A stretch of 32,000 nt of DNA from Nostoc sp. NOS(2021) (GCF_017115025.1 NZ_JABXKM010000093.1:7508-39507), one strand, 5' to 3'; counted from the stretch's first letter, positions 3,536-31,707 are shown. Notes: generated by a model from the letters alone, not told the origin. Numbers and translations are program-made.

Positions 3536-5089
3536 ATGTCAGACCCCAACATTGGTCGCTTACTCAGCAAACGCTACCAACTCCAGGAGTTAATCGGTAC
3601 TGGAGCAATGGGTCGGGTTTATCGTGCTAAAGATACTTTGTTGGGAGGTGTACCTGTTGCGGTTAAGTTTCTCGCCCTATCAATCCAAAATGAAAAGATG
3701 CGATTGCATGACCGCTTTGAGCGAGAAGCAAAAACCTGTGCTTTACTAGGGCAAAAAAGCATCCACATTGTCCGAGTCATGGACTATGGCGTAGATGACA
3801 ATAACACCCCGTTCTACGTCATGGAATACCTACAAGGACAAAGCCTAAACAATATTATTCGCAAGCAACGACTGCCTTTACTAAGATTCCTGAGTATGGC
3901 GCGTCAACTCAGCCTGGGGTTACAGTGCGCCCATGATGGCATCCTAGTTGAGGGCACAATTTGCCCAATTATCCATCGCGATGTCAAGCCAAGCAATATC
4001 CTGGTGATTCAAGATCCCAGTTTCGGAGAATTGGTCAAGGTTCTAGATTTTGGTATTGCTAAGTTATTACAGTCAGATGGCGACCATACAAAATTTTATT
4101 TGGGGACACTGGCTTATTCTTCTCCCGAACAGATGGAGGGTAAAGAATTAGACAACCGTGCTGATATTTATAGTTTAGGCGTGATGATGTTTGAGATGCT
4201 CACAGGCAAAATGCCACTGGTGGCACCAACTCACTCTTTTGGAGCATGGTATAAAACACATCACTATCAAAAACCACGTTCTTTTGCTGAGGTTGCACCC
4301 GGATTAGAACTACCAAAAGAAATCGAAAATTTGGTGATGAGTTCTCTAGCTAAAGTACCACGCGATCGCCCCCAAAATATCGCTGAAATCCTCAGAGTTT
4401 TAGCATCTCTAGAAAAGCCTGAGCATACACGCATCCCTAAGCAAGACAGCCATGCCTTAGTTCCTGCTACTACAGTGAGCAATAAGCTTGAACAAAAGAC
4501 AAAAGCCGATTTGCGGGCATCCTGGTCGAACGATGAAATTGCTCGTGCCATTTCCTGGCCCCAAAATAAACCAATTGCCGATATTGTGTTTCCCCAGACC
4601 ATTCACACCAATGAGGAGGTTTTACCAGCTCTGTGGGTGATGCTACCGCAAGAGGAAATTCAAAAGCGCTTACTCTGTACCCGCTATAACCAATTTCTTT
4701 TCATTTCTATTCCCCATCCCATGCTCCTATGGATTACTGTTATCTACAACCGCAAACATGGTGCTAAATGGTTACCTTATTACCTTGATCTCAAAACCAG
4801 TCTTGGTCAAGAAATTGCCCGGTTACTACAGCATACAGGTTCCTACCGCCTGTTGTTCTTTGCACGAGAAACACCAAATCGCTGTACCCATATCTTACTT
4901 TCCAGCGTCGCTTCTGCCCAGCGCCAACGACTGCAAGATTGGGTCGCAATGAGCAATACATTGATGTCCTCTGCCGACCCGCAAATGAGTAAAAGCTTAC
5001 TCAAAAGCGAGTACGAAAAAATTAAGCCTCAAATTCTGGCAAAACTGGAAAGTATTGATACAGATTCTCCATACGATCTTTCTAGCTAG
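3536..5089 (+). CDS. Hanks-type Ser/Thr protein kinase with an uncharacterised ~220-aa C-terminal domain
   Basis: Kinase motifs are present: G-loop GTGAMGRVY, VAVKF lysine, catalytic loop HRDVKPSNIL, DFGIAK, and SPEQ in the activation segment. The C-terminal half (aa ~300-517) has no motif I recognise. Confidence 0.9.
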   Translation: MSDPNIGRLLSKRYQLQELIGTGAMGRVYRAKDTLLGGVPVAVKFLALSIQNEKMRLHDRFEREAKTCALLGQKSIHIVRVMDYGVDDNNTPFYVMEYLQGQSLNNIIRKQRLPLLRFLSMARQLSLGLQCAHDGILVEGTICPIIHRDVKPSNILVIQDPSFGELVKVLDFGIAKLLQSDGDHTKFYLGTLAYSSPEQMEGKELDNRADIYSLGVMMFEMLTGKMPLVAPTHSFGAWYKTHHYQKPRSFAEVAPGLELPKEIENLVMSSLAKVPRDRPQNIAEILRVLASLEKPEHTRIPKQDSHALVPATTVSNKLEQKTKADLRASWSNDEIARAISWPQNKPIADIVFPQTIHTNEEVLPALWVMLPQEEIQKRLLCTRYNQFLFISIPHPMLLWITVIYNRKHGAKWLPYYLDLKTSLGQEIARLLQHTGSYRLLFFARETPNRCTHILLSSVASAQRQRLQDWVAMSNTLMSSADPQMSKSLLKSEYEKIKPQILAKLESIDTDSPYDLSS

Positions 5090-6417: not shown

Positions 6418-7155
6418 CTAATGACTATTTTCTTCGAGTGAGACGATGACAACTGTGATGTTATCGTGCCCTCCGTGCTCTTTGGCAGCCTCAACTAGAG
6501 ACATGGCGGCTTTATCAACCCAAGGAGTGTCTTGGAGGCAGCTAGCAATCTTCTGCTCGACAAGTTCTTCTGTGAGACCATCGCTACATAACAGCAAGCG
6601 ATCGCCAACTTTTACATCCAGTGGTTGCAGATCAATCTGATGCAAATCTTCACGCCCCAAACAGCGCGATAATACATGACGAAAAGGATGTAACCGTGCT
6701 TCATCTAAGGTGATGTCACCGATTTTGATTGCCCGTGCTACCCAAGTGTGGTCTTCCGTTACCTGTTCTAATTGCGACTCCCGGAAGCGATACAGCCGCG
6801 AATCGCCAACATGACCGCACCAGGGCGACTCTGGGGAGCGAAAAATTACCGCTACAACCGTTGTACCCATGTCGGCGCGTGCGGGATGATTTTGCTGATC
6901 CTGCAAAATCGCTTCATTGGCACCCCACAAAGCTTGCTCTAGCAATTCTTGGGAAGATTTAGGAGATTGCCAATTTGCCACTAAATACGCCTGAATTTCT
7001 TTAGTGGCAATCCGACTTGCTTCCTCACCTCCGGCATGACCACCCATGCCATCGGCGACAACGAAAAACCGCCCCTCTGGGTCGATATAGTAAGCATCCT
7101 GATTATTAGAACGAATAAGTCCCGGATCGCTAAAACCCGTGAAATTAAGTTTCAT
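6418..7155 (-). CDS. PP2C-family Ser/Thr protein phosphatase
   Basis: PP2C motifs are present: RSNNQDA, VADGMGGHAGGE, GDSRLY, LLCSDGL and GGHDNITVV. Confidence 0.9.
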   Translation of the reverse strand: MKLNFTGFSDPGLIRSNNQDAYYIDPEGRFFVVADGMGGHAGGEEASRIATKEIQAYLVANWQSPKSSQELLEQALWGANEAILQDQQNHPARADMGTTVVAVIFRSPESPWCGHVGDSRLYRFRESQLEQVTEDHTWVARAIKIGDITLDEARLHPFRHVLSRCLGREDLHQIDLQPLDVKVGDRLLLCSDGLTEELVEQKIASCLQDTPWVDKAAMSLVEAAKEHGGHDNITVVIVSLEENSH

Positions 7156-7172: not shown

Positions 7173-8909
7173 TTAATACATACGATCGTAACGGTCAAGG
7201 CGTAAAAGTAATCGGATCACGATTACTGAAAGCCCTGCTGCAATTAAACCAGGAACTAGTGCCCACCATGCATGATTGCTAACCACTAAGATCGTAGCTG
7301 AAAGTGTGAAACCACTGATTAACAGAGCATAGCTTATTGAAAGCTGAATACTGCTCTGCCGCCGCAACAGCCGTTCAGTTTCTATAGAACGAACGCGCAA
7401 GCGCATGTCTCCCCGTTCTAGCTTCTCTAGCGTATCCTCTAATCTACGTGGTAGACCAAACGCAGTACTACTTACTTGAGCTGCTTGGCGACTTAATTCG
7501 TTAAGAAAGCTATTCCCCTCAGAACCATTCATATCGGTCATAAGCTGCATTGCATATGGTTTGGCAACTTCCATAAAGTTAAAATCTGGATCTAAACCTT
7601 TGCCTACCCCTTCCAGAGTAGAAAAGGCTCGCATCACAAAAGTGAAGGTTGCTGGAAATCTAAATGGCTGATTATAAGCTATTTCGTAAAGGTCGTCACT
7701 AATTGCTGCGACCGATTGATTTTCAAAGGGCTTATCCATGAAATTATCCAGCATGTACTGGACGGAACGCCGCACTGGGCCCATATCATCCGTTGGGGCG
7801 ATCGCGCCTAAATCGATCAGAGACTGCACAACGCGATCGCCGTCTTTTTGGGCAATACCAAACAGGGTTTGCATCAATCCTTCGCGGACGTTGGCTTTAA
7901 TCCGCCCCATCATGCCAAAATCGTAGAATATTAAAGCCCCACTTGCACTAACGGCAATATTGCCTGGGTGGGGATCGGCGTGGAAAAAGCCACTATTGAG
8001 TAACTGAATTAAATAGGCTTGAGCGCCTTGACGAGCGATCGCCTTTCGATCCAAACCTGCTGCTTCTAAAGCTTCGTATTGGCTAATTTTAATTCCAGGG
8101 AGATATTCCAAAGTCAGCACTCTGGACGTGGCATAACGCCAATATATTCTTGGGACGTTCACCCAATCGTAGCCGCGAAAGTTCCGGCGAAAAGTATCGG
8201 CGTTACGACCTTCGTTAAGATAATCAATTTCTTCCCAAAGAATACGACAACACTCGTCATAAATACCCAACCAATCTCGCCCTTTTCCCCATTTGGGATG
8301 GTTTTGAAAATAGCGAGTAATTCCCTTGAGAATTTGTAAATCTATTTCAAATAACTTCTTGAGTCCAGGACGTTGCACCTTGACAACAACTGATTCCCCA
8401 GTATACAGCACAGCTTTGTGTACTTGCCCCAAGCTAGCAGCAGCTAGGGGAATAGGTTCAAAATTATGGAATAGTTCAGGAATTTTCTTGCCTAATTCTT
8501 TCTCAATGGTCGCTTCTACTTGCTCATAGCTAAATGCCGGTACTTTGTCTTGTAATTTGGCTAGTTCTTCTACATATTCACCAGGGAATATATCAGCACG
8601 GGTAGAAAACAATTGCCCGACTTTGATGAAGGTTGGCCCTAAATCCAGCAGGGTATTACGAATCCAGACCGCTTGAGTTTTGCGTCTTGCAGCTTGCTTG
8701 ACTTCAGTTACTCCACCCGCGTAACTCCAAGATTTGTTGTATAGCCAAAGCTTGAACATTAAGGTCAAGACAAAAGACCAAATGTCCACAAAACGCCGTC
8801 TGCTAGAGTAGTTTTCCCGATTCCAACGGTATGCCTTTTCTGAATAACCTTGTTCCATATGCTTTGTGTACCGTTGGTTTGCGATCGAATCACCTGGAAG
8901 AAAAGACAC
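7173..8909 (-). CDS. ABC1/UbiB (AarF)-family atypical kinase with C-terminal transmembrane helices
   Basis: Motifs include GPTFIKVGQLFSTR, AAASLGQVHKA, VVVKVQRPG, HADPHPGNI and FYDFGMMG. The tail is hydrophobic (LISGFTLSATILVV..., LIAAGLSVIVI). Confidence 0.9.
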   Translation of the reverse strand: MSFLPGDSIANQRYTKHMEQGYSEKAYRWNRENYSSRRRFVDIWSFVLTLMFKLWLYNKSWSYAGGVTEVKQAARRKTQAVWIRNTLLDLGPTFIKVGQLFSTRADIFPGEYVEELAKLQDKVPAFSYEQVEATIEKELGKKIPELFHNFEPIPLAAASLGQVHKAVLYTGESVVVKVQRPGLKKLFEIDLQILKGITRYFQNHPKWGKGRDWLGIYDECCRILWEEIDYLNEGRNADTFRRNFRGYDWVNVPRIYWRYATSRVLTLEYLPGIKISQYEALEAAGLDRKAIARQGAQAYLIQLLNSGFFHADPHPGNIAVSASGALIFYDFGMMGRIKANVREGLMQTLFGIAQKDGDRVVQSLIDLGAIAPTDDMGPVRRSVQYMLDNFMDKPFENQSVAAISDDLYEIAYNQPFRFPATFTFVMRAFSTLEGVGKGLDPDFNFMEVAKPYAMQLMTDMNGSEGNSFLNELSRQAAQVSSTAFGLPRRLEDTLEKLERGDMRLRVRSIETERLLRRQSSIQLSISYALLISGFTLSATILVVSNHAWWALVPGLIAAGLSVIVIRLLLRLDRYDRMY

Positions 8910-8937: not shown

Positions 8938-9010
8938 TGTCCTTTGTCATTTGTCCTTTGTCATTTGCGTACAATTTTTTACTAATGACTAATGACCAAT
9001 GACTAATGAC
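8938..9010. repeat. STRR-type heptamer repeat block forming an imperfect hairpin
   Basis: The left arm is TGTCCTT/TGTCATT heptamers (8938-8967). The right arm is ACTAATG/ACCAATG heptamers (8981-9010). The same heptamers recur at 28267-28321 and 6362-6416. Confidence 0.7.
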
Positions 9011-10415: not shown

Positions 10416-11243
10416 ATGACCATTGCTCAAGAATTAGATTCTCAACAAGGCATCTGCCAAGATGTTATATTTCCCCCTGGTGATTTATATAGTGATGAGC
10501 CTCCCTTGGAAAGCGAACTACATCTAGAGCAAATTATGCTCTTGCTAAAATGTCTAAAATGGCTGTGGCGAGATAGAAATGATTTCTATGCGGCTGGAAA
10601 CCTGACTATCTACTACAGTCCACGCCAACGCAAATCAGAACATTTCCGGGGTCCAGACTTTTTTGTAGTCCTGGGAACTGAACGCAAAACCCGTAAAAGT
10701 TGGGTAGTCTGGGAAGAAGATGGCAAATATCCGAATGTAATTTTGGAAATTCTTTCGGAATCAACAGCTAAGACTGACAAAGATTTAAAGAAAACAATTT
10801 ATCAAGATACTTTTCGTACCCATGATTATTTTTGGTTTGACCCTTACACACAAGAATTTGCGGGATTTCATTTAGTAGATGGAGAATATCAACCTCTACA
10901 AGCTTCGGAGCAAGGACATTTGTGGAGTCATCAGCTAGGGTTATATCTGGGAATTTATCAGGGTCTATTGCGGTTTTTTACACGAGATGGGCAACTAGTA
11001 CCAACACCTGAAGAAACGGCAGAACAAGCAGAAGAAACGGCAGAACAAGCAGAACAAAAGGCAGAACAAGCAGAACAAAAGGCAGAACAGGCAGAACAAA
11101 AGGCAGAACAAGCAGAACAAAAGGCAGAACAAGCAGAACAAAAAGCAGAACAAGCAGAACAAAAGGCAGAACAAGCAGAACAAAAGGCAGAACGTTTGGT
11201 AGCAAAACTGCGGGAGTTAAATATCGACCCAGAGACAATTTAG
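10416..11243 (+). CDS. Uma2 (DUF820) family PD-(D/E)xK endonuclease with a C-terminal heptad-repeat tail
   Basis: The core is GPDFFVV...PNVILEILSESTAKTDKDLKK..Y......YFWFDP, which has the PD...E.LS...D..K layout of the Uma2 family. The tail is (EETAEQA)x2 (EQKAEQA)x6-7 followed by LVAKLRELNIDP. It is a paralog of 19119-19889. Confidence 0.85.
   Translation: MTIAQELDSQQGICQDVIFPPGDLYSDEPPLESELHLEQIMLLLKCLKWLWRDRNDFYAAGNLTIYYSPRQRKSEHFRGPDFFVVLGTERKTRKSWVVWEEDGKYPNVILEILSESTAKTDKDLKKTIYQDTFRTHDYFWFDPYTQEFAGFHLVDGEYQPLQASEQGHLWSHQLGLYLGIYQGLLRFFTRDGQLVPTPEETAEQAEETAEQAEQKAEQAEQKAEQAEQKAEQAEQKAEQAEQKAEQAEQKAEQAEQKAERLVAKLRELNIDPETI
11010..11193 (+). repeat. 21-bp tandem repeat, about 8.75 copies, in frame inside the Uma2 gene
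   Basis: The units gaagaaacggcagaacaagca (x2) and gaacaaaaggcagaacaagca (x6, with single-base variants) are head to tail. Each encodes one 7-aa heptad. Confidence 0.95.
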
Positions 11244-14127: not shown

Positions 14128-14401
14128 ATAAGTAAACTCAAGAAATTAGTGGAGCAATTTCTCAAGCAGCCTCCAGAAGTGCGGTTTCAGGAAGTACGCT
14201 ATTTATTGGAAGCTTTTGGCTTTGAAGAAAAAGGTCTAAGGGTAGCCATCATAGTTTTCGAGACTCCCAAGCTAGAAGATCACTGCACCCAAAACTGGGG
14301 GAAAAAAAGTTAAAGGAGTTTATGTACAGCAAATAGTTGAACTATTAAATTTAGAAGAGTGGATTGATGAAGACACTGAACCAGAAGAACAAGCAGATTG
14401 A
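14128..14401 (+). pseudogene. hicA: HicA-family mRNA interferase toxin, decayed (lost start codon and two frameshifts)
   Basis: Three frames together read (I)SKLKKLVEQFLKQPPEVRFQEVRYLLEAFGFEEK / RSKGSHHSFRDSQAR / ITAPKTGGKKVKGVYVQQIVELLNLEEW. This matches the HicA layout (GF....KGSHH.F......I..PK.GGK.V). The expected ATG is ATA at 14128. Frame shifts fall near the A-run at 14226-14231 and near 14276-14283. Confidence 0.6.
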
Positions 14402-14747
14402 GAAGCCGTCCCTAGAATATTATTTAAATCTTCAGTATCCTGTAACACTTTACCCCGATCCAGAGGGGGGATATGTAGCTCAAATTAAAGATTTACCAGG
14501 ATGTCTCACCCAAGGCGAAACCCTAGAAGAGACAATGGCAAACATTAATGAGGCGCGAGAATTGTGGATTGAAACAGCTTATGAAGCTAGCGATGATATT
14601 CCTTTACCCAGCAGTGATAATAGTTATAGTGGTAAGTTGTTAGTGCGGATGCCAAAATCTCTACATCGTCGTTTAGCTGAGACTGCTGAACGCGAAGGTG
14701 TAAGTCTAAATCAGTATATTGTGTCTTTGTTAAGTGCAGTGGCTTAA
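14364..14747 (+). CDS. hicB: HicB-family antitoxin with a C-terminal ribbon-helix-helix domain
   Basis: The N-terminal HicB fold reads YPVTLYPDPEGGYVAQIKDLPGCLTQGETLEETMANINEA. The RHH-type DNA-binding tail reads GKLLVRMPKSLHRRLAETAEREGVSLNQYIVSLL. The likely start is the ATG at 14367. Confidence 0.85.
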   Translation: MMKTLNQKNKQIEKPSLEYYLNLQYPVTLYPDPEGGYVAQIKDLPGCLTQGETLEETMANINEARELWIETAYEASDDIPLPSSDNSYSGKLLVRMPKSLHRRLAETAEREGVSLNQYIVSLLSAVA

Positions 14748-18444: not shown

Positions 18445-19089
18445 ATGACACTCACAGTCGAAGCTAGCAGCCTATCTCTCAACGATGTTCATCGCTTTCT
18501 CAAACTAGAAAAGCTTTCCAATGGTTCATTTGCAGATTTCTTAAGGCTAGAACCACTTTCTGAGTTTGAACAGCAGGATTTATTGCGAATCAGAAACGAC
18601 TTTGAACGTTACTCAAGCGCAGGGAAAATTTCTGAAGGTTTAGTTAAATTTATAACAATTGCACCATTAATGCGGTTAGCTGGGTTTTACGATGTGCCGA
18701 TTCGGTTGACAATGGAAGATAGCATTGCGATCGCCATCGAAGATGAAGACAGAAGAATTACTGGGCGGATGGATATTCTAGCAATCAACAGTCCTCAAAG
18801 TAATATTGCGCCGCCATTTTGGGTTGTAGTGATTGAAACGAAAAATAGTGCGATCGAAGTGGGTGAGGGTTTACCTCAATTACTCACTTATGCTTTTAAA
18901 AGTTTAGATCAACAACCATCTGTTTGGGGACTGGTAACTAACGGACTGCGTTATCAATTTGTTTGTTTAAGACATGAACAGCAGCCAACTTATCAGTTAA
19001 TGCCATTATTAAGTCTGAATGAATCTCCAGGTGCAATCGAGTTATTACAAGTTTGCAAAGCTATCTGCAAGTTACCGAATTTTCAGTAA
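18445..19089 (+). CDS. Standalone PD-(D/E)xK nuclease-fold protein (HsdR N-terminal-domain-like)
   Basis: The layout is SEGLVKFITIAPLMRLAGF...GRMDILAI...FWVVVIETKNS...GLPQLLTYA...VWGLVTNGLRYQF. This gives D...E-x-K catalytic spacing and a TNG...F tail, as in HsdR_N-type domains. Confidence 0.65.
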   Translation: MTLTVEASSLSLNDVHRFLKLEKLSNGSFADFLRLEPLSEFEQQDLLRIRNDFERYSSAGKISEGLVKFITIAPLMRLAGFYDVPIRLTMEDSIAIAIEDEDRRITGRMDILAINSPQSNIAPPFWVVVIETKNSAIEVGEGLPQLLTYAFKSLDQQPSVWGLVTNGLRYQFVCLRHEQQPTYQLMPLLSLNESPGAIELLQVCKAICKLPNFQ

Positions 19090-19118: not shown

Positions 19119-19889
19119 ATGTCTGAACTTGCTACCCTAGAATTCATCTCTGATGAAATTTCAGAGGACGAAGTTATTTTTCCTCCTGGCGATATACTGA
19201 GTCACGAACCACCCTTGGAAAGTGACCTGCATCGTGACCAAATCGATTTGCTGATTCGCATACTTAAATTATGGTGGCGATCGCGGCAAGATTTTTATGC
19301 TTCTGGCAATTTGACGATTTACTACAGTCCTAACCAAAAGAAATCAGAAGATTTCCGTGGCCCAGACTTTTTTGTAGTTTTGGGAAGTCAGAAAAAAGAC
19401 CGTAAGAGTTGGGTAGTTTGGCAAGAAGAGGGCAAATATCCGAATCTGATTGTGGAAATTTTGTCAAGTTCAACAGCAACAGTTGATAAAGGCTTAAAAA
19501 AACAAGTTTATCAGGATACCTTCCGTACACCAGATTATTTCTGGTTTGACCCTGTAACAATGGAACTTCAGGGATTTCATTTAGTAGATGGTAAGTATCA
19601 AGAAATTCAACCCACCACTGATGGACGTTTGTGGAGTCAGCAGTTAGAACTTTATTTGGGAGTTTATGAAGGTAAATTAAGATTCTTCACTACTGAAAAT
19701 CAATTGATATTATCATCTGAAGAACTGGCCCAACAAGCAGAAGAACGCGCCCAACAAGCAGAAGAACGCGCCCAACAAGCAGAAGAATGCGCCCAACAAG
19801 CAGAAGAACGCGCCCAACAAGCAGAACAAGAAATTGCTCGACTGCGGGAGGTTTTACGTATACAGGGCATCGTTCTAGAGAATATTTAA
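19119..19889 (+). CDS. Uma2 (DUF820) family PD-(D/E)xK endonuclease with a heptad-repeat tail; paralog of 10416-11243
   Basis: It has the same core as the first copy (GPDFFVVLG...KYPNLIVEILSSSTATVDKGLKK.VYQDTFRTPDYFWFDP). The tail is (AQQAEER)x4-5 followed by IARLREVL. Confidence 0.85.
   Translation: MSELATLEFISDEISEDEVIFPPGDILSHEPPLESDLHRDQIDLLIRILKLWWRSRQDFYASGNLTIYYSPNQKKSEDFRGPDFFVVLGSQKKDRKSWVVWQEEGKYPNLIVEILSSSTATVDKGLKKQVYQDTFRTPDYFWFDPVTMELQGFHLVDGKYQEIQPTTDGRLWSQQLELYLGVYEGKLRFFTTENQLILSSEELAQQAEERAQQAEERAQQAEECAQQAEERAQQAEQEIARLREVLRIQGIVLENI
19729..19828 (+). repeat. 21-bp tandem repeat, about 4.75 copies, in frame inside the second Uma2 gene
   Basis: The unit gcccaacaagcagaagaacgc is repeated head to tail. 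One copy has a single c-to-t change (gaatgc). Confidence 0.95.
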
Positions 19890-19981: not shown

Positions 19982-20671
19982 TTGCAAGCTAAAGAGATTA
20001 AGGAGAAGCTAAAGTCCCTTATCGAGCAAGCCTCCTCGATAGATCATAATTTAGCGAGAAGATTAGATGAAATCAATCGTTGGGTAAAGAATATTAAGCC
20101 AGGTTCCCTGACTGCTAAACCTTTTGTGATTGCTTTTCTGCTAGAGGTGATTACGGATTCTACAATTTGGCTGATAATCAAATCCTTACCTTCAGAAGAA
20201 GAACAAAAAGCAAAGTTCGAGCAAATGACGCCGATTGAGAGATATTGGTATGCTTATCTCTTTCCCAGATGGTTCAATGCAAGTGACTCCAAGTTTTATA
20301 TTTGGAAACAAAAATTAATGGCAGGCGAATTTAATCAGCTTGATGATGATATCATTAAATTAATCGCTCAAGATATTGTCAGTCGTGAAGGTAGTTTTTG
20401 GCAGCGTTATATTGCCGACCTTTCTATGGCAACAGATTTAATTGTTAGTCGTAACAATCAACCACTGTGCATTCAAGTTACCAGTGTTAGTGAAGAACTT
20501 AATTACCAAAAGTACCAAGCTTGGCAAAATACACTGCGATCGTGGGAAATCGAGAGAGGATTGTTTTTAAGTTACAATCCCAAGGATGCTAATTTTGTTA
20601 ACCAGTTAGTCAACGTGGCCCTGTATAACAGTGATTACCTTTCTGGTGGCAAATATTTAAAATTTTCGTGA
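19982..20671 (+). CDS. Hypothetical protein, 229 aa (TTG start as listed)
   Basis: A long clean ORF. Its stop overlaps the start of the next ORF (GTGA at 20668-20671), which suggests translational coupling. No motif was recognised. Confidence 0.55.
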   Translation: MQAKEIKEKLKSLIEQASSIDHNLARRLDEINRWVKNIKPGSLTAKPFVIAFLLEVITDSTIWLIIKSLPSEEEQKAKFEQMTPIERYWYAYLFPRWFNASDSKFYIWKQKLMAGEFNQLDDDIIKLIAQDIVSREGSFWQRYIADLSMATDLIVSRNNQPLCIQVTSVSEELNYQKYQAWQNTLRSWEIERGLFLSYNPKDANFVNQLVNVALYNSDYLSGGKYLKFS

Positions 20672-21183
20672 ATTTTGTGGAATTTGATATTCCAGATTTG
20701 GATTATAGCCTAAATACTTACCTGCTAATTACAGCTTTTATGGTTAATAAAAGAGAAATTCACAGCTGCAACAATCAAGTAGATACATTTGCGGAAGCTT
20801 TAGCAACAGCCCGACAAATGCAGCAAAGCTGGCTAACTTACGGGGTTGATTTTGTCAATTTTTACGTTGAGGATGTAGATGGAGACTGGCTGGAAACGTG
20901 GGGGAATGACGAAATATTAGGTAATTTTCGATTAGATGCTATTAAAGAATTTTTGGTAAGTAATGATAGTGTAGCTGTGAAGGTAAGACAGCATTTAGGA
21001 GAGCGATCGCTATTTGATTTCGCAGTAAACTTAGAAGAATCTTGGAGAATTTCTGAAACCAATGACAGGTTATCTGTTGTGATAAACTTGTTAGCTGGTG
21101 AAGAAAATAGTATTCATACAGATGACATCAGGTTAGTGGATTTAGCAAATAGTCTGCTGGTAAAGTTGGCAGAGATTTTGTGA
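20668..21183 (+). CDS. Hypothetical, strongly acidic protein, 171 aa
   Basis: A GTG start overlaps the upstream stop by 4 nt. By my count it has about 30 D/E against about 12 K/R. No motif was recognised. Confidence 0.55.
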   Translation: MNFVEFDIPDLDYSLNTYLLITAFMVNKREIHSCNNQVDTFAEALATARQMQQSWLTYGVDFVNFYVEDVDGDWLETWGNDEILGNFRLDAIKEFLVSNDSVAVKVRQHLGERSLFDFAVNLEESWRISETNDRLSVVINLLAGEENSIHTDDIRLVDLANSLLVKLAEIL

Positions 21184-21218: not shown

Positions 21219-21322
21219 CTCTCTCTAAATCTCTCTCCTAAAAGGAGAGAGACTTTGAATTCCTTCTCTTCCTTTGCGTTCTTCTCTACGAGACGCTGCG
21301 CGAATGCGTCCTTTGCGGTTCG
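21219..21322. repeat. Nostoc-type dispersed repeat with a hairpin (tctctctcctaaaaggagagaga) plus the ctctacgagacgctgcgcgaatgcg module
   Basis: It shares the ctacgagacgct.cgcgaa.gc module with 880-905. The hairpin arms are perfectly complementary. Confidence 0.6.
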
Positions 21323-21507
21323 TTAAAAAATCGACTTTGACAAAGGAGTTAAGCCTTAACCCAAGCGTATTGGGATATAGGCGATCGCTTTTCCAGATAA
21401 GCTTTAATAATCTTTTAGATGTGCAATCTTTATCACTGTTAGTAGTAAGGGTTGATCCTGAATCTGGTAGATAATACGGTATTCACCCAAACGAACCTTA
21501 TACAGAT

Positions 21508-21795
21508 GTAATGAATGCTGAAGCAATTGTTACTCACGTTCGAGCATTCATAAGAAGTGTTTAAGCATTTGTTGCAAACGTTCAATTTTTTATTATCAAT
21601 GTTGCAGCAATAGTTACTCACCTTGAAGCATTTATAAGAAACGTTTAAGTATTTGTTGCAAACGTTCATTTTTTTTGATGAATGCTGAAGCAATTGTTAC
21701 TCACGTTGAAGCATTTATAAGAAACGTTTAAGCATTTGTTGCAAACGTTCAATTTTTTTGATGAATGCTGAAGCGATTGTTACTCACGTTGAAAG
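21508..21795 (+). repeat. Tandem array of an 83-84 bp unit, about 3.4 copies, 124 bp upstream of the NLR-like operon
   Basis: Units start near 21510, 21594, 21677 and 21760 (the last is partial). The consensus is gatgaatgctgaagcaattgttactcacgttgaagcatttataagaaacgtttaagcatttgttgcaaacgttcaattttttt. Each unit ends in a weak hairpin (aaacgttt-13 nt-aaacgtt) followed by a T6-8 run. Confidence 0.9.
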
Positions 21796-21918
21796 TTTTC
21801 CCTTATAACGTACACTCGACTTTCAGGGGATAAATTGGATTAGCCTGTATCTCTCTGGAATATAAACAGCTGTTATTGTATCCATCAGTGAAGATGTCGC
21901 TGGATAAGGTAGGATATT

Positions 21919-22335
21919 TTGGAACCAATTACAGCTAGTGCGATCGCAACTCTGGCTTTTACCAAAGCATTTGAGAAAACCGTCGAGAAATTTACTGAAG
22001 CAGCCCTTGCTAAAATAGATGAGCTGCGAAAAAAGATTTGGGGTAAGTTACGGGGAAATCTGAAAGCAGAAACAGCCCTACTTGCTGCTGAAAAAGGCTC
22101 TAAACCAGATTTAGACCGAGTTGCTGCTTACTTGCAGATAATTTTACATGAAGAACCGGAGTTTGCTAAAGAAGTAGAAACACTGGCTCGTGAAATTGAG
22201 GCTGGTAAGATAGTAGACAAAAGCACTATGAGCCAAATCAATCAAGACAATGCCAAGGGATGGCAAAATAAGATTGACGGTGGAACAGTTTATCAAGGCG
22301 ATATTAACATTCATCATGCACCCCCCAATTCTTGA
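21919..22335 (+). CDS. Small helical protein (138 aa) with a C-terminal G/N/Q-rich motif shared with the downstream NLR; candidate Bell/HeLo-like effector
   Basis: TTG start, preceded by aaggtagga. Residues 1-100 look all-helical, with a hydrophobic first helix MEPITASAIATLAFTKAF. Residues 104-132 (MSQINQDNAKGWQNKIDGGTVYQGDINIH) repeat at the N-terminus of the next gene. Confidence 0.7.
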   Translation: MEPITASAIATLAFTKAFEKTVEKFTEAALAKIDELRKKIWGKLRGNLKAETALLAAEKGSKPDLDRVAAYLQIILHEEPEFAKEVETLAREIEAGKIVDKSTMSQINQDNAKGWQNKIDGGTVYQGDINIHHAPPNS

Positions 22336-22346
22336 ATTGAGCCATC

Positions 22347-24953
22347 ATGAACCAAAGCAACCAGGATAATGCCAGGGGATGGGAAACTGAGGTAAAGGGT
22401 GGAACAGTTTATCAAGGCGATATTCGTATCAACAATTACCCGACTCAGCACTTACAGTCAACTTCTCCAAATAATATTCCTTACCGGGGTGTCGCCAACT
22501 TTGTCGGGCGGGATGAGAAACTTGTAGAAGTGCATAAAAAATTGCTGCAAAATGACAGCGCAGCAATTTTGGCTGTGGCTGGTATGGGGGGAATGGGTAA
22601 AACTGAACTGGCGACACAATACGGACACCGCTACAAAGTCAATTATCCTGGTGGGCTTTGCTGGTTAGATGCCAGAAAACTAGATTTAGCAGCAGAGATT
22701 GTGGAGTTTGCTAAGTTTTACATGAAACTGGAAGTACCGCAAAACTTATTGACTTCCCAGGAACAAGCAAAATGGTGCTGGCATAATTGGCAACCACAAA
22801 CAGGACTAGTCTTGGTAGTATTGGACAATGTTGACGATGTGACTAACTGGAAAAATTCTCGCCAAGTACTACCAACAGATAACCGCTTCCGTATATTGAT
22901 GACAACTCGGTTGCGAAATATCCATTCAACCGTTCAACAGATAACTTTGGATGAACTCTCACCAAACGATGCTTTGAATTTGTTGACAACTTTGTTGGGT
23001 GAGAATGATAGGCGGGTGCAACGGGAACCACAAACGGCAGCAAATTTATGTAAATGGCTGGGATATCTGCCTTTAGGTTTGCAATTAGTCGGCGCGTATT
23101 TGGCAGAAGATCCAAATTTGTCTTTGGCAGAGATTTTACAACAATTACCAGCCCAAGAAAAGTCTCAATTGGAAGCTGTATTTGAATTAAGCTGGCAACA
23201 ACTCGATTTTATGACACAGTGTGTCGGTGAGTTGTTGAGTTTATTTGCCCCAGATATCATTCCTTGGCAAATAGTTGAATCTGTCAGTCAGCAGCTAAAT
23301 TGGGCAAAGGCAGATGTTGACAAGGCGAGAAAGCAACTTTATCAACGCCATTTAATTCAAAGCGTAGCAGAAGGAGAAAGTTGTTATAAAATTCATCCTT
23401 TAATTAGGGAGTTTTTGCAAGGGAAATTAGTAGGGTTAAACACAGCCGATGACTTCAAAAAAGCCTTTGCCGCAGCATTAGTAGAAATTGCTCAGAAAAT
23501 ACCTAAATTTCTTACCCTTGAGGATATCAAGTCAGTGCAACTGTCAATTCCTCATTTAAATGAGGTGGCACAAAATCTGATTGATATTGTGGAGGATAAA
23601 AATTTATTCTGGGTTTTCAATGGCTTGGGCAGATTCTATAAAGGACAAGGTTTGTATACCTTAGCAGCACCTTGGTATGAGCAAGGATTATCAACGGTGC
23701 AAACCCGTTTGGGAGAAGCACATCCCGATGTTGCCACCAGCCTGAACAACCTGGCATTACTCTACGATTCTCAAGGACGCTACGACCAAGCCGAACCGCT
23801 GTATTTCCAAGCTTTAGAACTAACAAAACGTCTGTCTGGTGAAAATCATCCCAATGTTGCCAGCAACCTGAACAACCTGGCATTACTCTATTATCATCAA
23901 GGGCGTTACTCTGAAGCTGAACCGTTATCGCAACAAGCAATAGAACTAGATAAGCGATTTTTAGGAGAAGAAAATCCTGAGATTGCTACAGATTTTCATA
24001 ATTTGGGATTAATATATCGCGCTCAAGGACGTTACTCTGAAGCCGAATCATTGTTTTTACAATCATTAGAACTTAAAGAGCGCATACTGCAAGAAGCTCA
24101 TCCCTTATTAACAGATACTATTTACGCTCTTGGCTATATGTACAGAGAACAAGGATGCTACAAGGAGGCAGAACCTTTATGTTTAAAAGCATTAGAGCTT
24201 GATAAATATCTATTGGGAGATAACCATCCTAATGTTGCTGAAAGTCTCAATAATTTAGCAGAAATGTATCGTGTAATGGGACGTTACAGCGAAGCAAAAC
24301 CGCTATATCTACAAGCTTTAGAACTTTATAAACGCCTGTTGGGAGATGCACACCCCTTTGTTGCCACCAGCCTGAACAACCTGGCAAATCTCTACAATTC
24401 TCAAGGACGCTACGACCAAGCCGAACCCCTGTATCTCCAAGCTTTAGAACTGAGAAAACGCCTGCTGGGAGAAGCACATCCCTTTGTTGCCACCAGCCTG
24501 AACAACCTGGCAAATCTCTACAATTCTCAAGGACGCTACGACCAAGCCGAACCCCTGTATCTCCAAGCTTTAGAACTGAGAAAACGCCTGCTGGGAGAAG
24601 CACATCCCTTTGTTGCCACCAGCCTGAACAACCTGGCAAATCTCTACAATTCTCAAGGACGCTACGACCAAGCCGAACCCCTGTATCTCCAAGCTTTAGA
24701 ACTGAGAAAACGCCTGCTGGGAGAAGCACATCCCTTTGTTGCCACCAGCCTGAACAACCTGGCAAATCTCTACAATTCTCAAGGACGCTACGACCAAGCC
24801 GAGCCCCTGTATCTGCAAGCTTTAGAAATTCGTCAGCAGGTGTTTGGGGTAAATCATCCCAATACGGTTACTGTTCGGCAAAATCTAGAAAATCTTCAAG
24901 CTCAAAAGAGTGATAACTCTAAAGTTAAGAACAATACTAACAATTCTTGGTGA
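22347..24953 (+). CDS. NLR-like STAND ATPase with an N-terminal short motif, an NB-ARC domain and TPR (KLC-type) repeats
   Basis: It has Walker A AGMGGMGKTELA (nt 22581-22604), Walker B LVLVVLDNVDD, RILMTTR, and LGYLPLGLQLVG (GLPL motif). About eleven 42-aa TPR units follow (H/NP.VA.SLNNLA.LY..QGRY..AEPLY.QALEL). The ATG lies 11 nt after the upstream stop. Confidence 0.92.
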   Translation: MNQSNQDNARGWETEVKGGTVYQGDIRINNYPTQHLQSTSPNNIPYRGVANFVGRDEKLVEVHKKLLQNDSAAILAVAGMGGMGKTELATQYGHRYKVNYPGGLCWLDARKLDLAAEIVEFAKFYMKLEVPQNLLTSQEQAKWCWHNWQPQTGLVLVVLDNVDDVTNWKNSRQVLPTDNRFRILMTTRLRNIHSTVQQITLDELSPNDALNLLTTLLGENDRRVQREPQTAANLCKWLGYLPLGLQLVGAYLAEDPNLSLAEILQQLPAQEKSQLEAVFELSWQQLDFMTQCVGELLSLFAPDIIPWQIVESVSQQLNWAKADVDKARKQLYQRHLIQSVAEGESCYKIHPLIREFLQGKLVGLNTADDFKKAFAAALVEIAQKIPKFLTLEDIKSVQLSIPHLNEVAQNLIDIVEDKNLFWVFNGLGRFYKGQGLYTLAAPWYEQGLSTVQTRLGEAHPDVATSLNNLALLYDSQGRYDQAEPLYFQALELTKRLSGENHPNVASNLNNLALLYYHQGRYSEAEPLSQQAIELDKRFLGEENPEIATDFHNLGLIYRAQGRYSEAESLFLQSLELKERILQEAHPLLTDTIYALGYMYREQGCYKEAEPLCLKALELDKYLLGDNHPNVAESLNNLAEMYRVMGRYSEAKPLYLQALELYKRLLGDAHPFVATSLNNLANLYNSQGRYDQAEPLYLQALELRKRLLGEAHPFVATSLNNLANLYNSQGRYDQAEPLYLQALELRKRLLGEAHPFVATSLNNLANLYNSQGRYDQAEPLYLQALELRKRLLGEAHPFVATSLNNLANLYNSQGRYDQAEPLYLQALEIRQQVFGVNHPNTVTVRQNLENLQAQKSDNSKVKNNTNNSW
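24353..24802 (+). repeat. Perfect 126-bp tandem repeats (about 3.6 copies) encoding identical 42-aa TPR units
   Basis: Copies begin at 24361, 24487, 24613 and 24739 and are base-for-base identical as far as I can read. They diverge only after 24802. Confidence 0.95.
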
Positions 24954-28266: not shown

Positions 28267-28321
28267 ACTAATGACCAATGACTAATGACCAATGACTAAT
28301 GACTAATGACTAATGACCAAT
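28267..28321. repeat. STRR-type heptamer tandem repeat (ACTAATG/ACCAATG), about 8 copies
   Basis: The repeat is read directly. It lies in the divergent ndk/speA intergenic region. Confidence 0.9.
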
Positions 28322-30435: not shown

Positions 30436-30537
30436 GGACTGGGGACTGGGGACTAGGGAAATTTTTTCCCAATATCCAATCCTCAATACCAATAACCAAT
30501 CCCCAGTCCCTAATACCCAGTCCCCAATCCCCATTCC
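30436..30537. repeat. STRR1-type heptamer block (GGGGACT on the left, CCCCAGT/CCCCAAT on the right) forming an imperfect hairpin between convergent genes
   Basis: The left side is gggactggggactggggactaggg and the right side is ccccagtccctaatacccagtccccaatcccc. The block fills the whole gap between the speA stop and the stop of the next gene. Confidence 0.85.
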
Positions 30538-31707
30538 CTAATTTGCGTTTGTCCCCAACAATTCCTCTATCGCTTGTCGCTCAACAGGGGTATGTGATGG
30601 GACTGTCTGACGGGCATCGGTAATCAGCCAGTCTAAAGCAGCGGCTTGAACGTCAATCGCAGCGCCAGTTTTATCTACGCAATAACGTCCAAATACTAGC
30701 TTATCGACTAACCGGACTCCCGGACCCAGGCGCGACCACTCAAAAATTACGCTGTTATCTACTGTTGCGCCACTACATATCCAACAATTGGGGCCAATCA
30801 TCGAAGGGCCGACAATTTTAGCTCCGTCTTCGATTCTCGTCATACCGCCAATATAAACGGGGCCTGTGATATCCACTTTGTCCCAATTTACGGCGACATT
30901 TAAGCCAGTGTAGATGCCAGGGGCGACTTCATGACCAGGAATTTGCACATTTTTGATTTCACCCAGCAGCACACCGCGAATCGCCCGCCAATAGTCTGGG
31001 ACTTTACCAATATCTACCCATTCAAAGTCCATAGGGATGGCGTAGAAGGGAGCTTTGATTTCTACCAATTTGGGAAACAATTGGCTACCAATGTCATACT
31101 CGATACCAGAGGGGATATAATCAAAAACCTCTGGCTCAAAGATGTAAATACCTGTGTTGATGTTCGTGCTGAGGGCTTCTTCAGTTGAAGGTTTTTCTTG
31201 GAAAGCTTTGACGCGACCATCTTCGTCAGTCACAACTACACCGTAGCTAGAAACTTCTTCCTTGGGGACAGATTTCGTGATAATAGTAGCGATCGCCCCT
31301 CTAGCTCTATGCCATTTAACCGCCGCAGTTAAATCCAAGTCAATCAAAGCATCACCGCACAAAACCACAAAGGTATCATCAAAAAAGGGTGAGAAGTCTT
31401 GGATGCGCCGCATTCCTCCAGCTGAACCGATTGCTTCCCCCTCCAATTTACCCTCGTCATCAATTTTCCCTTCAAAGGAATAGGCAATCTGTACCCCAAA
31501 CCGTTGACCATCACGGAAATAGTTTTCTATTTCTTCAGCCAAATGACTAACGTTGACCATAATTTGGTCAAATCCATGTTGGCGTAACAGTTCTAGCAAG
31601 AACTCCATCACTGGCTTTTGCAGGATGGGAATCATTGGTTTGGGAATTGTATAGGTAATCGGACGCACGCGAGTACCCTTGCCAGCCGCGAGAATCATCG
31701 CTTTCAT
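30538..31707 (-). CDS. NDP-sugar pyrophosphorylase (mannose-1-phosphate guanylyltransferase-like) with a C-terminal left-handed beta-helix
   Basis: It has the N-terminal signature MKAMILAAGKGTRVRPITYTIPKPMIPI. The hexapeptide-repeat-like C-terminus reads VYIGGMTRIEDGAKIVGPSMIGPNCWICSGATVDNSVI. Confidence 0.9.
   Translation of the reverse strand: MKAMILAAGKGTRVRPITYTIPKPMIPILQKPVMEFLLELLRQHGFDQIMVNVSHLAEEIENYFRDGQRFGVQIAYSFEGKIDDEGKLEGEAIGSAGGMRRIQDFSPFFDDTFVVLCGDALIDLDLTAAVKWHRARGAIATIITKSVPKEEVSSYGVVVTDEDGRVKAFQEKPSTEEALSTNINTGIYIFEPEVFDYIPSGIEYDIGSQLFPKLVEIKAPFYAIPMDFEWVDIGKVPDYWRAIRGVLLGEIKNVQIPGHEVAPGIYTGLNVAVNWDKVDITGPVYIGGMTRIEDGAKIVGPSMIGPNCWICSGATVDNSVIFEWSRLGPGVRLVDKLVFGRYCVDKTGAAIDVQAAALDWLITDARQTVPSHTPVERQAIEELLGTNAN

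Follow-up and report, generated by a model that had tools for sequence, protein, structure and literature searches.

Two adjacent genes in a stretch of 32,000 nucleotides from Nostoc sp. NOS(2021), referred to here as the window, encode proteins that share a short motif, placed at the C-terminus of the first and at the N-terminus of the second. This arrangement raises the question of whether the two proteins communicate through their motifs, as do the effectors and NLR-like receptors of amyloid-signalling systems. The effector/NLR shared-motif architecture proposed in an earlier note on this DNA is present and falls within a named family, BASS9; in our view the two genes likely make up a Bell/NLR module of the BASS9 type that belongs to the Nostoc chromosome and signals through amyloid. 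The genes and motifs are arranged as follows.

21919..22335, + strand: Bell-domain effector gene with a C-terminal BASS9 motif (138 aa, TTG start, TGA stop)
22228..22314, + strand: Bell-side BASS9 motif, aa 104-132, MSQINQDNAKGWQNKIDGGTVYQGDINIH
22336..22346, + strand: intergenic spacer of 11 nt between the Bell and NLR genes, ATTGAGCCATC
22347..24953, + strand: NB-ARC/TPR NLR-like ATPase gene with an N-terminal BASS9 motif (868 aa, ATG start)
22347..22433, + strand: NLR-side BASS9 motif, aa 1-29, MNQSNQDNARGWETEVKGGTVYQGDIRIN

The coordinates and sequences of the two ORFs, their common strand and the 11-nt gap were reproduced as previously described. The NLR lies in a frame other than that of the Bell ORF, with its own ATG and its own copy of the motif. 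Since the spacer is the same or near-identical across the Nostoc orthologs, both genes are probably read from one transcript with coupled translation. The motif copies are identical at 19 of 29 residues and 68 of 87 bases, including a run of 27 identical nucleotides (GGTGGAACAGTTTATCAAGGCGATATT; 22279-22305 and 22398-22424). This similarity, already reported in the earlier note, was recovered in full: the local alignment of the two motifs scores 120, compared with 22.2 ± 4.9 for shuffled sequences (maximum 50; n = 20,000), corresponding to z = 20. Identical codons are used for 15 of the 19 identical residues. The motif, described before as G/N/Q-rich, indeed contains 40% N+G+Q over its 29 residues, together with alternating hydrophobic residues and a GG turn. 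Scanning all six reading frames with a regular expression revealed no further copies in the window.

By sequence comparison, the Bell/NLR pair is a further member of the published BASS9 family, whose members are presumed to switch on cell death through amyloid, and as such it brings nothing new. Over all of its 138 aa, the Bell protein shares 67% identity with a protein of Calothrix sp. PCC 6303 (P0006), which provides the homology to catalogued Bell proteins: residues 104-126 of P0006 are the exact string given for AFZ02241.1, the Calothrix PCC 6303 Bell protein that appears as a BASS9 partner in Table S2 of Dyrka et al. (2020). The Bell-side motif matches this published string (MTQINQDNAKGWQTKVDGGTAYI) at 18 of 23 residues. 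In addition, the N. punctiforme ortholog B2IX19 belongs to the cya_03 motif set, and this set has been assigned to BASS9 (PMC8086366). As in BASS9, the motif is found at the effector C-terminus and at the NB-ARC N-terminus of collinear genes within 5 kb of each other, here with a gap of 11 nt. Overall, the published pairs (Dyrka et al., 2020, cya_03/nlr_20; e.g., AFZ02241.1/AFZ02242.1, with further examples in Calothrix NIES-4101 and Microcystis PCC 7806) share with the window pair a homologous Bell protein (67-71% identity, 138 aa), the core M-x-Q-x-N-x-D-N-A-K/R-G-W-Q-x-x-V/I-x-G-G-T, and an NB-ARC/TPR partner encoded collinearly a few nucleotides away. Two-gene BASS9 pairs are known from Calothrix, Microcystis, Leptolyngbya, Pseudanabaena and Chamaesiphon. 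On the other hand, the Nostoc-clade NLR N-terminus, MNQSNQDNA(K/R)GW...GGTVYQGD, is absent from the published pair table. Over the published 23-residue span the partner motifs of the window are identical at 15 positions, whereas those of the published pairs are identical at 9-13, and this is the highest within-pair identity seen among BASS9 pairs; moreover, the match reaches 29-32 residues through the VYQGDI core, which is identical in DNA. The view that the module is uncharacterised does not hold for it as a kind, BASS9 having been described already. In the literature consulted, amyloid formation has been tested for BASS1, BASS3 and BASS11 motifs only, and as late as 2024 the role that Bell/NLR pairs play in multicellular bacteria was still called unresolved.

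In the effector, a helical domain of roughly 95 residues is followed by a flexible linker and then by the motif.

21919..22203, + strand: Bell helical domain, aa 1-95, with the MEPIT hydrophobic helix 1 followed by four more helices

Its TTG start, preceded by aaggtagga, is shared by the Nostoc orthologs; other genera use ATG or GTG here. The N-terminus reads MEPITASAIATLAF, of which M1, E2 and P3 are conserved in at least 90% of 47 homologs, and nearly all of the 193 Bell homologs are 134-146 aa long. The AlphaFold model contains helices at residues 6-18, 27-44, 48-58, 62-78 and 80-95 (pLDDT 72-89), in keeping with the earlier description of a helical protein with a hydrophobic first helix. 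Both the all-alpha N-terminal domain of about 100 residues in a protein of about 120-140 aa and the hydrophobic N-terminal helix in which residue 2 or 3 is acidic (MEPIT) are as expected of Bell, and a 'MEPIS' N-terminal signature is common to the Bell/Hell/Bab domains and Avast2. The protein is predicted to be disordered from residue 100, and a pLDDT below 50 over the motif marks the latter as unstructured in the modelled monomer. Searches of Pfam, NCBIfam and PADLOC with the small protein gave no significant family; the top match was DUF7607 (E = 0.075), which was also matched, always weakly, by 11 of the 47 homologs scanned. The earlier note proposed a comparison with HeLo models: Pfam HeLo, Helo_like_N and SesA gave no match at E up to 1, either with the window protein or among the top families of the 47 homologs. 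Some Bell homologs carry the UniRef name 'NACHT-NTPase and P-loop NTPases N-terminal domain-containing protein', and no Pfam family corresponding to this name was found among the matches listed. A profile search of PDB sequences returned nothing meaningful, and Foldseek with the AlphaFold model against the PDB returned generic helical bundles only (E > 4, TM of the best matches ≤0.23), with no similarity to HeLo or MLKL detected. Fold topology is reported to vary widely across the Bell-related superfamily.

The second gene encodes a protein whose domains are readily recognised.

22515..23150, + strand: NB-ARC domain, aa 57-268, with Walker A at 22581-22604 and Walker B at 22812-22838
22899-22910 and 23067-23081, + strand: NB-ARC sub-motifs MTTR and LPLGL, respectively
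23721..24854, + strand: nine KLC-type TPR units of 42 aa each, aa 459-836, the presumed sensor domain
24298..24827, + strand: TPR-coding unit of 126 nt in 4.2 tandem copies, 97% identity

In the 868-aa protein, the NB-ARC domain (PF00931) reaches 70.9 bits, the cut-off being 23.5, and TPR_12 reaches 505 bits; with nine TPR units, the previous identification of an NB-ARC protein with KLC-type TPRs is upheld. The motifs GMGGMGKT (aa 79-86), LVVLDNVDD (156-164) and MTTR (185-188) occur as listed before, but the supposed 'GLPLGL' reads G-Y-LPLGL (239-245). An NB-ARC domain above the Pfam threshold with Walker A, Walker B, sensor and GxP motifs, and C-terminal repeats that build a superstructure, are the attributes of an NLR-like STAND ATPase, and the protein has them. 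The last four TPR units are near-identical, three of the 126-nt units encode the same protein sequence, and the NLR varies in length from 585 to 1090 aa among orthologs.

The pair is found at one chromosomal site, adjoining acs, in at least 17 related Nostoc loci as well as in Nodularia, and at least 19 Nostoc loci retain the two ORFs undamaged. The dN/dS ratio is 0.17 for the Bell domain, 0.21 for the Bell motif, 0.41 for the NLR motif and 0.35 for NB-ARC; because it stays between 0.17 and 0.41 in all four parts, the Bell and NLR genes are under purifying selection. The same nucleotide variants are seen in both motif copies, for instance the core GCTTATGTCGGC and a synonymous T private to one locus (L021). 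Variants common to both copies indicate, as a pattern in the sequences, that the two copies evolve in concert by gene conversion; their 5' parts carry fixed paralog-specific differences. In the syntenic Nodularia locus both copies changed together (GYQIGTATGTNYFGG and GYQVGKATGNNHFGN), and motif scores average 73 for cognate against 58.5 for non-cognate partners, the observed mean being reached in none of 20,000 permutations. Among close Nostoc orthologs, however, the cognate motif is not consistently the best match, and loci such as L004, L017 and L018 mix VYQG and AYVG cores; therefore, strict pair specificity is not supported among them.

Loci other than that of the window show a different arrangement. 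A single motif copy is present in 23 homologous loci, where the Bell ORF stops at a TGA and the NLR carries on in the same frame without a start codon. These one-frame loci include the orthologous acs-linked locus of Scytonema HK-05, whose NLR has been annotated from an internal GTG. Another 52 metagenomic loci were found through the sequence pattern of the element, which included the TGA. In the one-frame loci, the TGA is followed by CTNNAG and, after an 8-nt spacer (CUACAGUC), by a hairpin of 5 bp. Pairing of its GGGA loop with a UCCC located 9 nt further on could form a pseudoknot, and compensatory changes occur in both helices. The one-frame NLR has neither a start codon before the P-loop nor a second motif copy. 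Independent initiation of the in-frame NLR was rejected for most loci, where no in-frame ATG, GTG or TTG occurs until codons 38-54, at or beside the P-loop; the residues before this first possible start correspond in alignment to residues 41-52 of the NLR in the window, where they are part of the protein. Among 71 elements in the loci retrieved, none has a sense codon in place of the TGA; 52 of these elements are not independent in this respect, having been retrieved by a TGA-containing pattern. Judged from these features, the one-frame junction looks like programmed UGA read-through; selenocysteine insertion at the TGA is considered unlikely. Rfam gave no family for the element when five one-frame loci were searched, and nothing relevant on read-through in NLR or amyloid systems of bacteria turned up in the literature searched. 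In one locus (L092), an alpha/beta-hydrolase precedes the TGA element. As for the window, the element is absent from it, even with 3 mismatches allowed, and read-through of the window Bell TGA was ruled out by a second in-frame TGA four codons on.

Taking the two arrangements together, we slightly favour the idea that the two-gene module and the one-frame gene with programmed UGA read-through are interchangeable ways of putting the amyloid motif of the effector on the sensor. In the one-frame loci, termination at the UGA would give an abundant Bell-motif effector, and read-through would give a rarer Bell-motif-NLR sensor from the same ORF. The duplicated-motif pair of the window would then be an evolutionary derivative, or the ancestor, of the one-frame arrangement.

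The way in which the BASS9-type module may act can be proposed by analogy with HET-S/NWD2, the BASS1/BASS3 pairs (Dyrka et al., 2020) and Bab/Agp of E. coli. A ligand, most likely phage-derived, would bind the TPR domain of the NLR, whereupon NB-ARC would exchange nucleotide and the NLR oligomerise. The clustered N-terminal motifs could then fold cooperatively into a cross-beta nucleus, which would template the motif, identical in its core, of free Bell proteins. Templating would free Bell helix 1 from its helical sheath and let it enter the membrane and kill the cell, so that one cell of the filament would be sacrificed in an abortive infection. In E. coli, a Bell-type effector with BASS11 carries out abortive infection that depends on amyloid (Ibarlosa et al., 2024 preprint).

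Related systems differ from the window pair in several respects. In HET-S/NWD2 of Podospora anserina, too, a helical effector that targets the membrane ends in an amyloid motif and the neighbouring NLR begins with one, and templating upon oligomerisation is the logic that the Nostoc pair may share. However, there is no detectable sequence or fold match; HET-S/NWD2 combines a HeLo effector with a NACHT-WD40 NLR, whereas the window pair combines Bell with NB-ARC-TPR, and HET-S has two pseudo-repeats where the Bell protein has one motif. For Bab/Agp (BASS11), abortive infection has been demonstrated experimentally (Ibarlosa et al., 2024 preprint); the Bab effector domain ('Babybell') is shorter, about 80 aa, and its motif belongs to a different family. 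Avast2/Avs and bNACHT, antiviral STAND NTPases with a MEPIS domain fused at the N-terminus, resemble the window pair in having a STAND ATPase with a repeat sensor, coupled to a Bell-like killing helix. In these proteins effector and NLR form one polypeptide that can do without an amyloid relay, while in the window the effector is separate and linked through the shared motif only.

The antiphage role proposed for the BASS9-type module has to be weighed against others. The same amyloid-templated activation of Bell might serve programmed cell death during development or under stress, or allow filaments to tell self from non-self, as in fungal heterokaryon incompatibility. Such a role, rather unlikely in our opinion, is favoured by the near confinement of Bell, NLR and BASS to multicellular or aggregate-forming prokaryotes (Dyrka et al., 2020), by the conserved chromosomal position of the module amid housekeeping genes, outside any prophage or obvious defence island, and by the near-identical TPR repeats of variable copy number, which resemble those of fungal allorecognition NLRs. 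It is at odds, on the other hand, with the antiphage abortive infection observed in the sole functional test of a Bell-type amyloid pair, and with the neighbouring ORFs (PD-(D/E)xK-like and Uma2/PDC-S03), which match candidate defence models. As a whole, the neighbourhood of the pair is only weakly defence-like, which counts against the antiphage reading. We find it improbable that the motif is an ordinary, non-amyloid tag for stoichiometric hetero-association, by which the NLR would hold or recruit Bell without prion-like templating. Its composition, length and terminal position are those of BASS families forming amyloid prions, and the single copy that would serve both products in the one-frame loci fits homotypic stacking better than a heterodimer interface, even if its predicted disorder as a monomer and the many substitutions tolerated between published BASS9 partners (9-13/23 identical) would suit such a tag.

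Finally, the earlier note held that orthologs with one continuous gene would reduce the two ORFs to a gene split by a recent partial duplication. The orthologous Scytonema locus is, as it happens, one reading frame broken only by a TGA, with one motif, and two further observations speak for a split: the NLR linker ...PTQHLQS... resembles the one-frame junction ...TQHQP*LQPS..., and 15 of the 19 identical motif residues share codons. Given the resemblance of the linker to the junction, an origin of the second motif copy by duplication is plausible, but such an origin would not imply loss of function. That the pair is a functionless remnant is barely credible, considering that at least 19 Nostoc loci keep the two ORFs undamaged, that the 5' parts of the motifs carry fixed paralog-specific differences, that dN/dS is 0.17-0.41, and that two-gene BASS9 pairs occur across five further genera; conservation, fixed differences and dN/dS effectively rule out the split-gene or pseudogene reading. 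The existence of a one-frame ortholog thus leaves function standing, because the two-gene form is intact and conserved and evolves under purifying selection, and because the one-frame form has its own conserved recoding-like signal.

As an amyloid-signalling module, the window pair is one more, unusually well-matched, example of a catalogued family and leaves existing knowledge unchanged. It nevertheless offers a clean test case, with the highest within-pair identity, a DNA-identical core and orthologs in tractable Nostoc strains, and the orthologous loci, at least 19 in number, with VYQG and AYVG cores constitute a natural comparison set for specificity. If the read-through is true, it would be a rare instance of programmed stop-codon read-through in a bacterial chromosome and could explain why many motif-bearing Bell proteins lack a motif-bearing NLR partner in published screens; current annotations would then truncate one-frame NLRs, as in Scytonema HK-05.

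The region upstream of the pair contains the following elements.

21503..21793, no strand: array of 41/42-nt units (about 3.4 copies of an 83-nt double unit) in the spacer that precedes the Bell gene
21789..21816, + strand: weakly supported promoter-like site TTGAAA-16-TACACT, some 100 nt before the Bell start

In a consensus scan, promoter sites were no more numerous than in shuffled sequences. The upstream operon ends with a terminator-like hairpin (21230-21252), and the 41/42-nt array is partly kept at the same position in orthologous Nostoc loci, with 77-84% identity.

The small helical putative effector (Bell), the NB-ARC/TPR ATPase (NLR) and the motif that they share are encoded by the following elements:

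21919-22335, + strand, Bell gene (138 aa, TTG start, TGA stop)
22228-22314, + strand, Bell-side motif copy, compared with the same region in loci L001-L021
22347-24953, + strand, NLR gene (868 aa), beginning 11 nt past the Bell TGA
22347-22433, + strand, NLR-side motif copy, compared with the same region in loci L001-L021
24298-24827, tandem TPR-coding repeat (126-nt unit, 4.2 copies, 97% identity)

Both ORFs, their 11-nt spacing and the shared motif are as the earlier note had described them. The two motif copies (Bell aa 104-132 and NLR aa 1-29) are identical at 19 of 29 residues and 68 of 87 nucleotides, with a common run of 27 nt (22279-22305 = 22398-22424). Their local alignment scores 120, as compared to 22 ± 4.9 in 20,000 shuffles, and a pattern scan of the six-frame translation found no third copy in the window. 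The TTG start of Bell, with a Shine-Dalgarno-like aaggtagga just 5′ of it, is kept in all close Nostoc orthologs; the homologous codon is ATG or GTG in other genera.

The reading of the large protein as NB-ARC plus TPR holds: the NB-ARC domain reaches 70.9 bits (cut-off 23.5) and the TPR region consists of nine 42-residue units. The Walker A, Walker B and MTTR sequences quoted previously are confirmed; the motif given as GLPLGL actually reads GYLPLGL. The four terminal TPR units are near-identical and ortholog NLRs vary from 585 to 1090 aa, which fits the repeat-shuffling regime described for the sensors of fungal and bacterial NLRs. Alternatively, assembly collapse of repeats may be a source of the length differences among orthologs; several assemblies break in the TPR repeat. 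An antisense ORF of 172 aa overlapping this repeat (24247-24765) is probably a by-product of it.

Outside the motif the small protein is helical, as had been proposed: its AlphaFold model (alignment of 47 homologs) has five helices within residues 6-95 (pLDDT 72-89) and a tail unstructured from residue 100. This protein falls under no model in Pfam, NCBIfam or PADLOC, and Foldseek with the model returned nothing useful on kinship to HeLo or MLKL. The databases hold 193 Bell homologs, nearly all of 134-146 aa and from filamentous or colonial cyanobacteria, among which an N-terminal M-E-P is almost invariant. The Bell domain, found in multicellular bacteria, has been defined as a helical domain of about 100 aa with a hydrophobic helix 1 and an acidic residue 2 or 3, and ten BASS motif families are common to Bell C-termini and adjacent NB-ARC/NACHT N-termini (Dyrka et al., bioRxiv 10.1101/2020.01.06.895854). 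For BASS9 (profiles cya_03/nlr_20), Table S2 of that study gives the Calothrix PCC 6303 pair AFZ02241.1/AFZ02242.1, with the Bell-side string MTQINQDNAKGWQTKVDGGTAYI at residues 104-126 of AFZ02241.1. The Calothrix PCC 6303 homolog in our set (P0006), 67% identical to the window Bell over its whole length, carries MTQINQDNAKGWQTKVDGGTAYI exactly at 104-126. Furthermore, the Nostoc punctiforme ortholog B2IX19 (…EAGKIVDKSTMTQINQDNAKGWQTKVEGGT) belongs to the cya_03 set (PMC8086366), which is assigned to BASS9, and MEPIT at the start of the window Bell corresponds to "MEPIS", a signature reported for the N-termini of Bell, Hell, Bab and Avast2. On these sequence grounds the window module is identified as a BASS9 Bell/NB-ARC-TPR pair, in support of the amyloid-signalling architecture suggested by the earlier note. 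The Nostoc NLR N-terminus (MNQSNQDNA…) is absent from the published pair table; therefore the pair is new to BASS9 but of a kind already known. It adds one member to the family, and its interest as such is modest.

Scanning one genome per species, we found 60 related loci. The window layout (Bell, 11-nt spacer, MNQSNQDN… NLR) occurs in 19 of them, every one Nostoc, and at least 17 of these have flanking DNA in common with the window. The common gene order is acs, PD-(D/E)xK-like ORF, Uma2 ORF, two unknown ORFs, repeat array, Bell and NLR, with TerC after the NLR in some of the syntenic Nostoc loci. Since at least 17 loci keep this flanking order, the module occupies a stable chromosomal site. 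The corresponding window features are:

18445-19089, PD-(D/E)xK-like ORF (PADLOC PD_DExK, 3.5e-8)
19119-19889, Uma2-family ORF (PDC-S03), with a paralog at 10416-11243
19982-20671 and 20668-21183, two overlapping ORFs (229 and 171 aa)
21503-21793, repeat array upstream of Bell (41/42-nt units, 83-nt double unit, about 3.4 copies)

Pairwise dN/dS is 0.17 for the Bell domain, 0.21 for the Bell-side motif, 0.41 for the NLR-side motif and 0.35 for NB-ARC.

The 5′ parts of the two motif copies have fixed differences specific to each paralog, and the core is common to both at the DNA level. A variant core, GCTTATGTCGGC (AYVG), is present in the Bell copies of L013, L014 and L017 and, with unchanged nucleotides, in the NLR copies of L004, L013, L014 and L018; likewise, a synonymous T private to L021 is found in both of its copies. 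These shared nucleotides imply gene conversion, which would keep the copies matched. In a syntenic Nodularia locus both copies are altered together, to GYQIGTATGTNYFGG and GYQVGKATGNNHFGN. In a comparison of 13 pairs drawn from different lineages, in which the newly collected sequences are longer than the 23-mers already published, cognate motifs score 73 and non-cognate motifs 58.5; the cognate value was not reached in any of 20,000 permutations. Strict pair specificity is not seen among the close Nostoc loci: L004, L017 and L018 combine different core types.

Anatomy, conservation and concerted motif evolution are thus documented for the module, and a mechanism can be proposed by analogy with HET-S/NWD2, the BASS1/BASS3 experiments and E. 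coli Bab/Agp. Binding of a ligand by the TPR domain would lead to oligomerisation of the NB-ARC domain, whereupon the N-terminal NLR motifs would nucleate a cross-beta fold able to template the motif of free Bell proteins; helix 1 of Bell, once freed, would attack the membrane. For BASS1 and BASS3, fibrils, prion behaviour and seeding of Bell-side by NLR-side motifs have been observed. In E. coli Bab/Agp, a Bell-type effector carries out abortive infection in an amyloid-dependent manner.

A different layout characterizes 23 of the 60 loci, from Scytonema, Brasilonema, Rivularia, Calothrix, Fischerella, Iphinoe, other genera and second loci of Nostoc sp. LPT. Here the NLR lies in frame with the Bell ORF without a second motif copy, and its first in-frame ATG, GTG or TTG is usually found at the P-loop or next to it (codons 38-54). 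All 23 Bell-motif ORFs end in TGA, with C as the next base in 22; stops in the two-gene loci are TGA (19), TAG (3) and TAA (2). Directly 3′ of the TGA is a conserved element of about 30 nt, CTACAGTCGTCCGAACGGGAACGGACAAAG, with a conserved CTNNAG and, past an 8-nt spacer, a 5-bp hairpin (93.6% of cells paired), a helix also recovered by RNAalifold. Two of the pairs have changed in a compensatory way (U-A replaced by C-G in 9 sequences, C-G by G-C in 5), and the covariation seen was reached by 0 of 500 shuffles. Because the amino acids encoded there change as well, the constraint acts on the RNA. The GGGA loop is able to pair with a UCCC located exactly 9 nt past the hairpin in 57 of about 71 elements, and the compensatory variants CGGA/UCCG (L026, L051) and GGCA/UGCC (L042) also occur, which suggests an H-type pseudoknot. 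Rfam has no family for the element.

A metagenome scan with a pattern that includes the TGA retrieved 52 further loci, where the element follows small proteins, nearly all starting MEP(L/F/V/I) and ending in varied amyloid-like motifs, and precedes in-frame NB-ARC/NACHT ORFs. In a single case (L092:707-1609, +) a 301-aa alpha/beta-hydrolase (DUF676/PGAP1-like), reminiscent of lipase-type effectors in fungal NLR systems, takes the place of Bell. The TGA-element architecture is found outside the window, in L025-L055 (e.g., L030:4430-4475), L061-L112 and L113:4430-4475. Programmed UGA read-through is the most economical reading of the one-frame loci; a single ORF would then supply both the effector (Bell-motif) and the sensor (Bell-motif-NLR). 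Our literature searches found no description of this one-frame TGA Bell-NLR architecture. Its occurrence in loci related or orthologous to the window is the result that most deserves follow-up.

One such ortholog belongs to Scytonema sp. HK-05:

AP018194.1:3534981-3543412, L113: acs, PD-DExK-like ORF, Bell, TGA element, NLR

Its 223-aa ORF is 74% identical to the window ORF 18445-19089, and the two NLRs are 54% identical over their full length, the alignment beginning at post-TGA residue 14, equivalent to window NLR residue 41. The deposited NLR start, an internal GTG, drops residues conserved with the window NLR. By gene order and these alignments L113 is orthologous to the window, yet has the one-frame TGA architecture; a search of the window found no TGA-hairpin element. 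The earlier note had held that orthologs with one continuous gene would mean that the two ORFs are simply a split gene. One-frame relatives do exist, but these have specialisations of their own, and the two-gene form is conserved independently of them; they fit the wording of that objection and not its sense.

The window is chromosomal Nostoc DNA with housekeeping genes including acs, aroK, ndk, speA and terC, about 85-94% identical to lichen-associated and free-living Nostoc genomes over common stretches. The genes immediately upstream of the module match a PD-(D/E)xK nuclease model and PDC-S03/Uma2, a candidate defence family, which hints weakly at a role of the region in defence. Each Uma2 ORF has a 21-nt in-frame tandem repeat (11010-11193, 8.8 copies; 19719-19826, 5.1 copies). 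The two overlapping ORFs, without Pfam, NCBIfam or PADLOC match, are kept beside the pair in Nostoc orthologous loci. The repeat array, located between a terminator-like hairpin (21230-21252) and Bell, has 81-nt copies 85-94% identical to each other and is partly conserved in these loci. Intergenic tandem heptamers (ACTAATG, CCCAATC; 8981-9010, 28267-28321, 30468-30542) are similar to the STRR repeats known from heterocystous cyanobacteria. Finally, a HicB-family antitoxin ORF (14364-14747) and a cluster of Ser/Thr kinase, PP2C phosphatase and ABC1 kinase (3536-5089, 6418-7155, 7173-8909) appear unrelated to the Bell/NLR pair.
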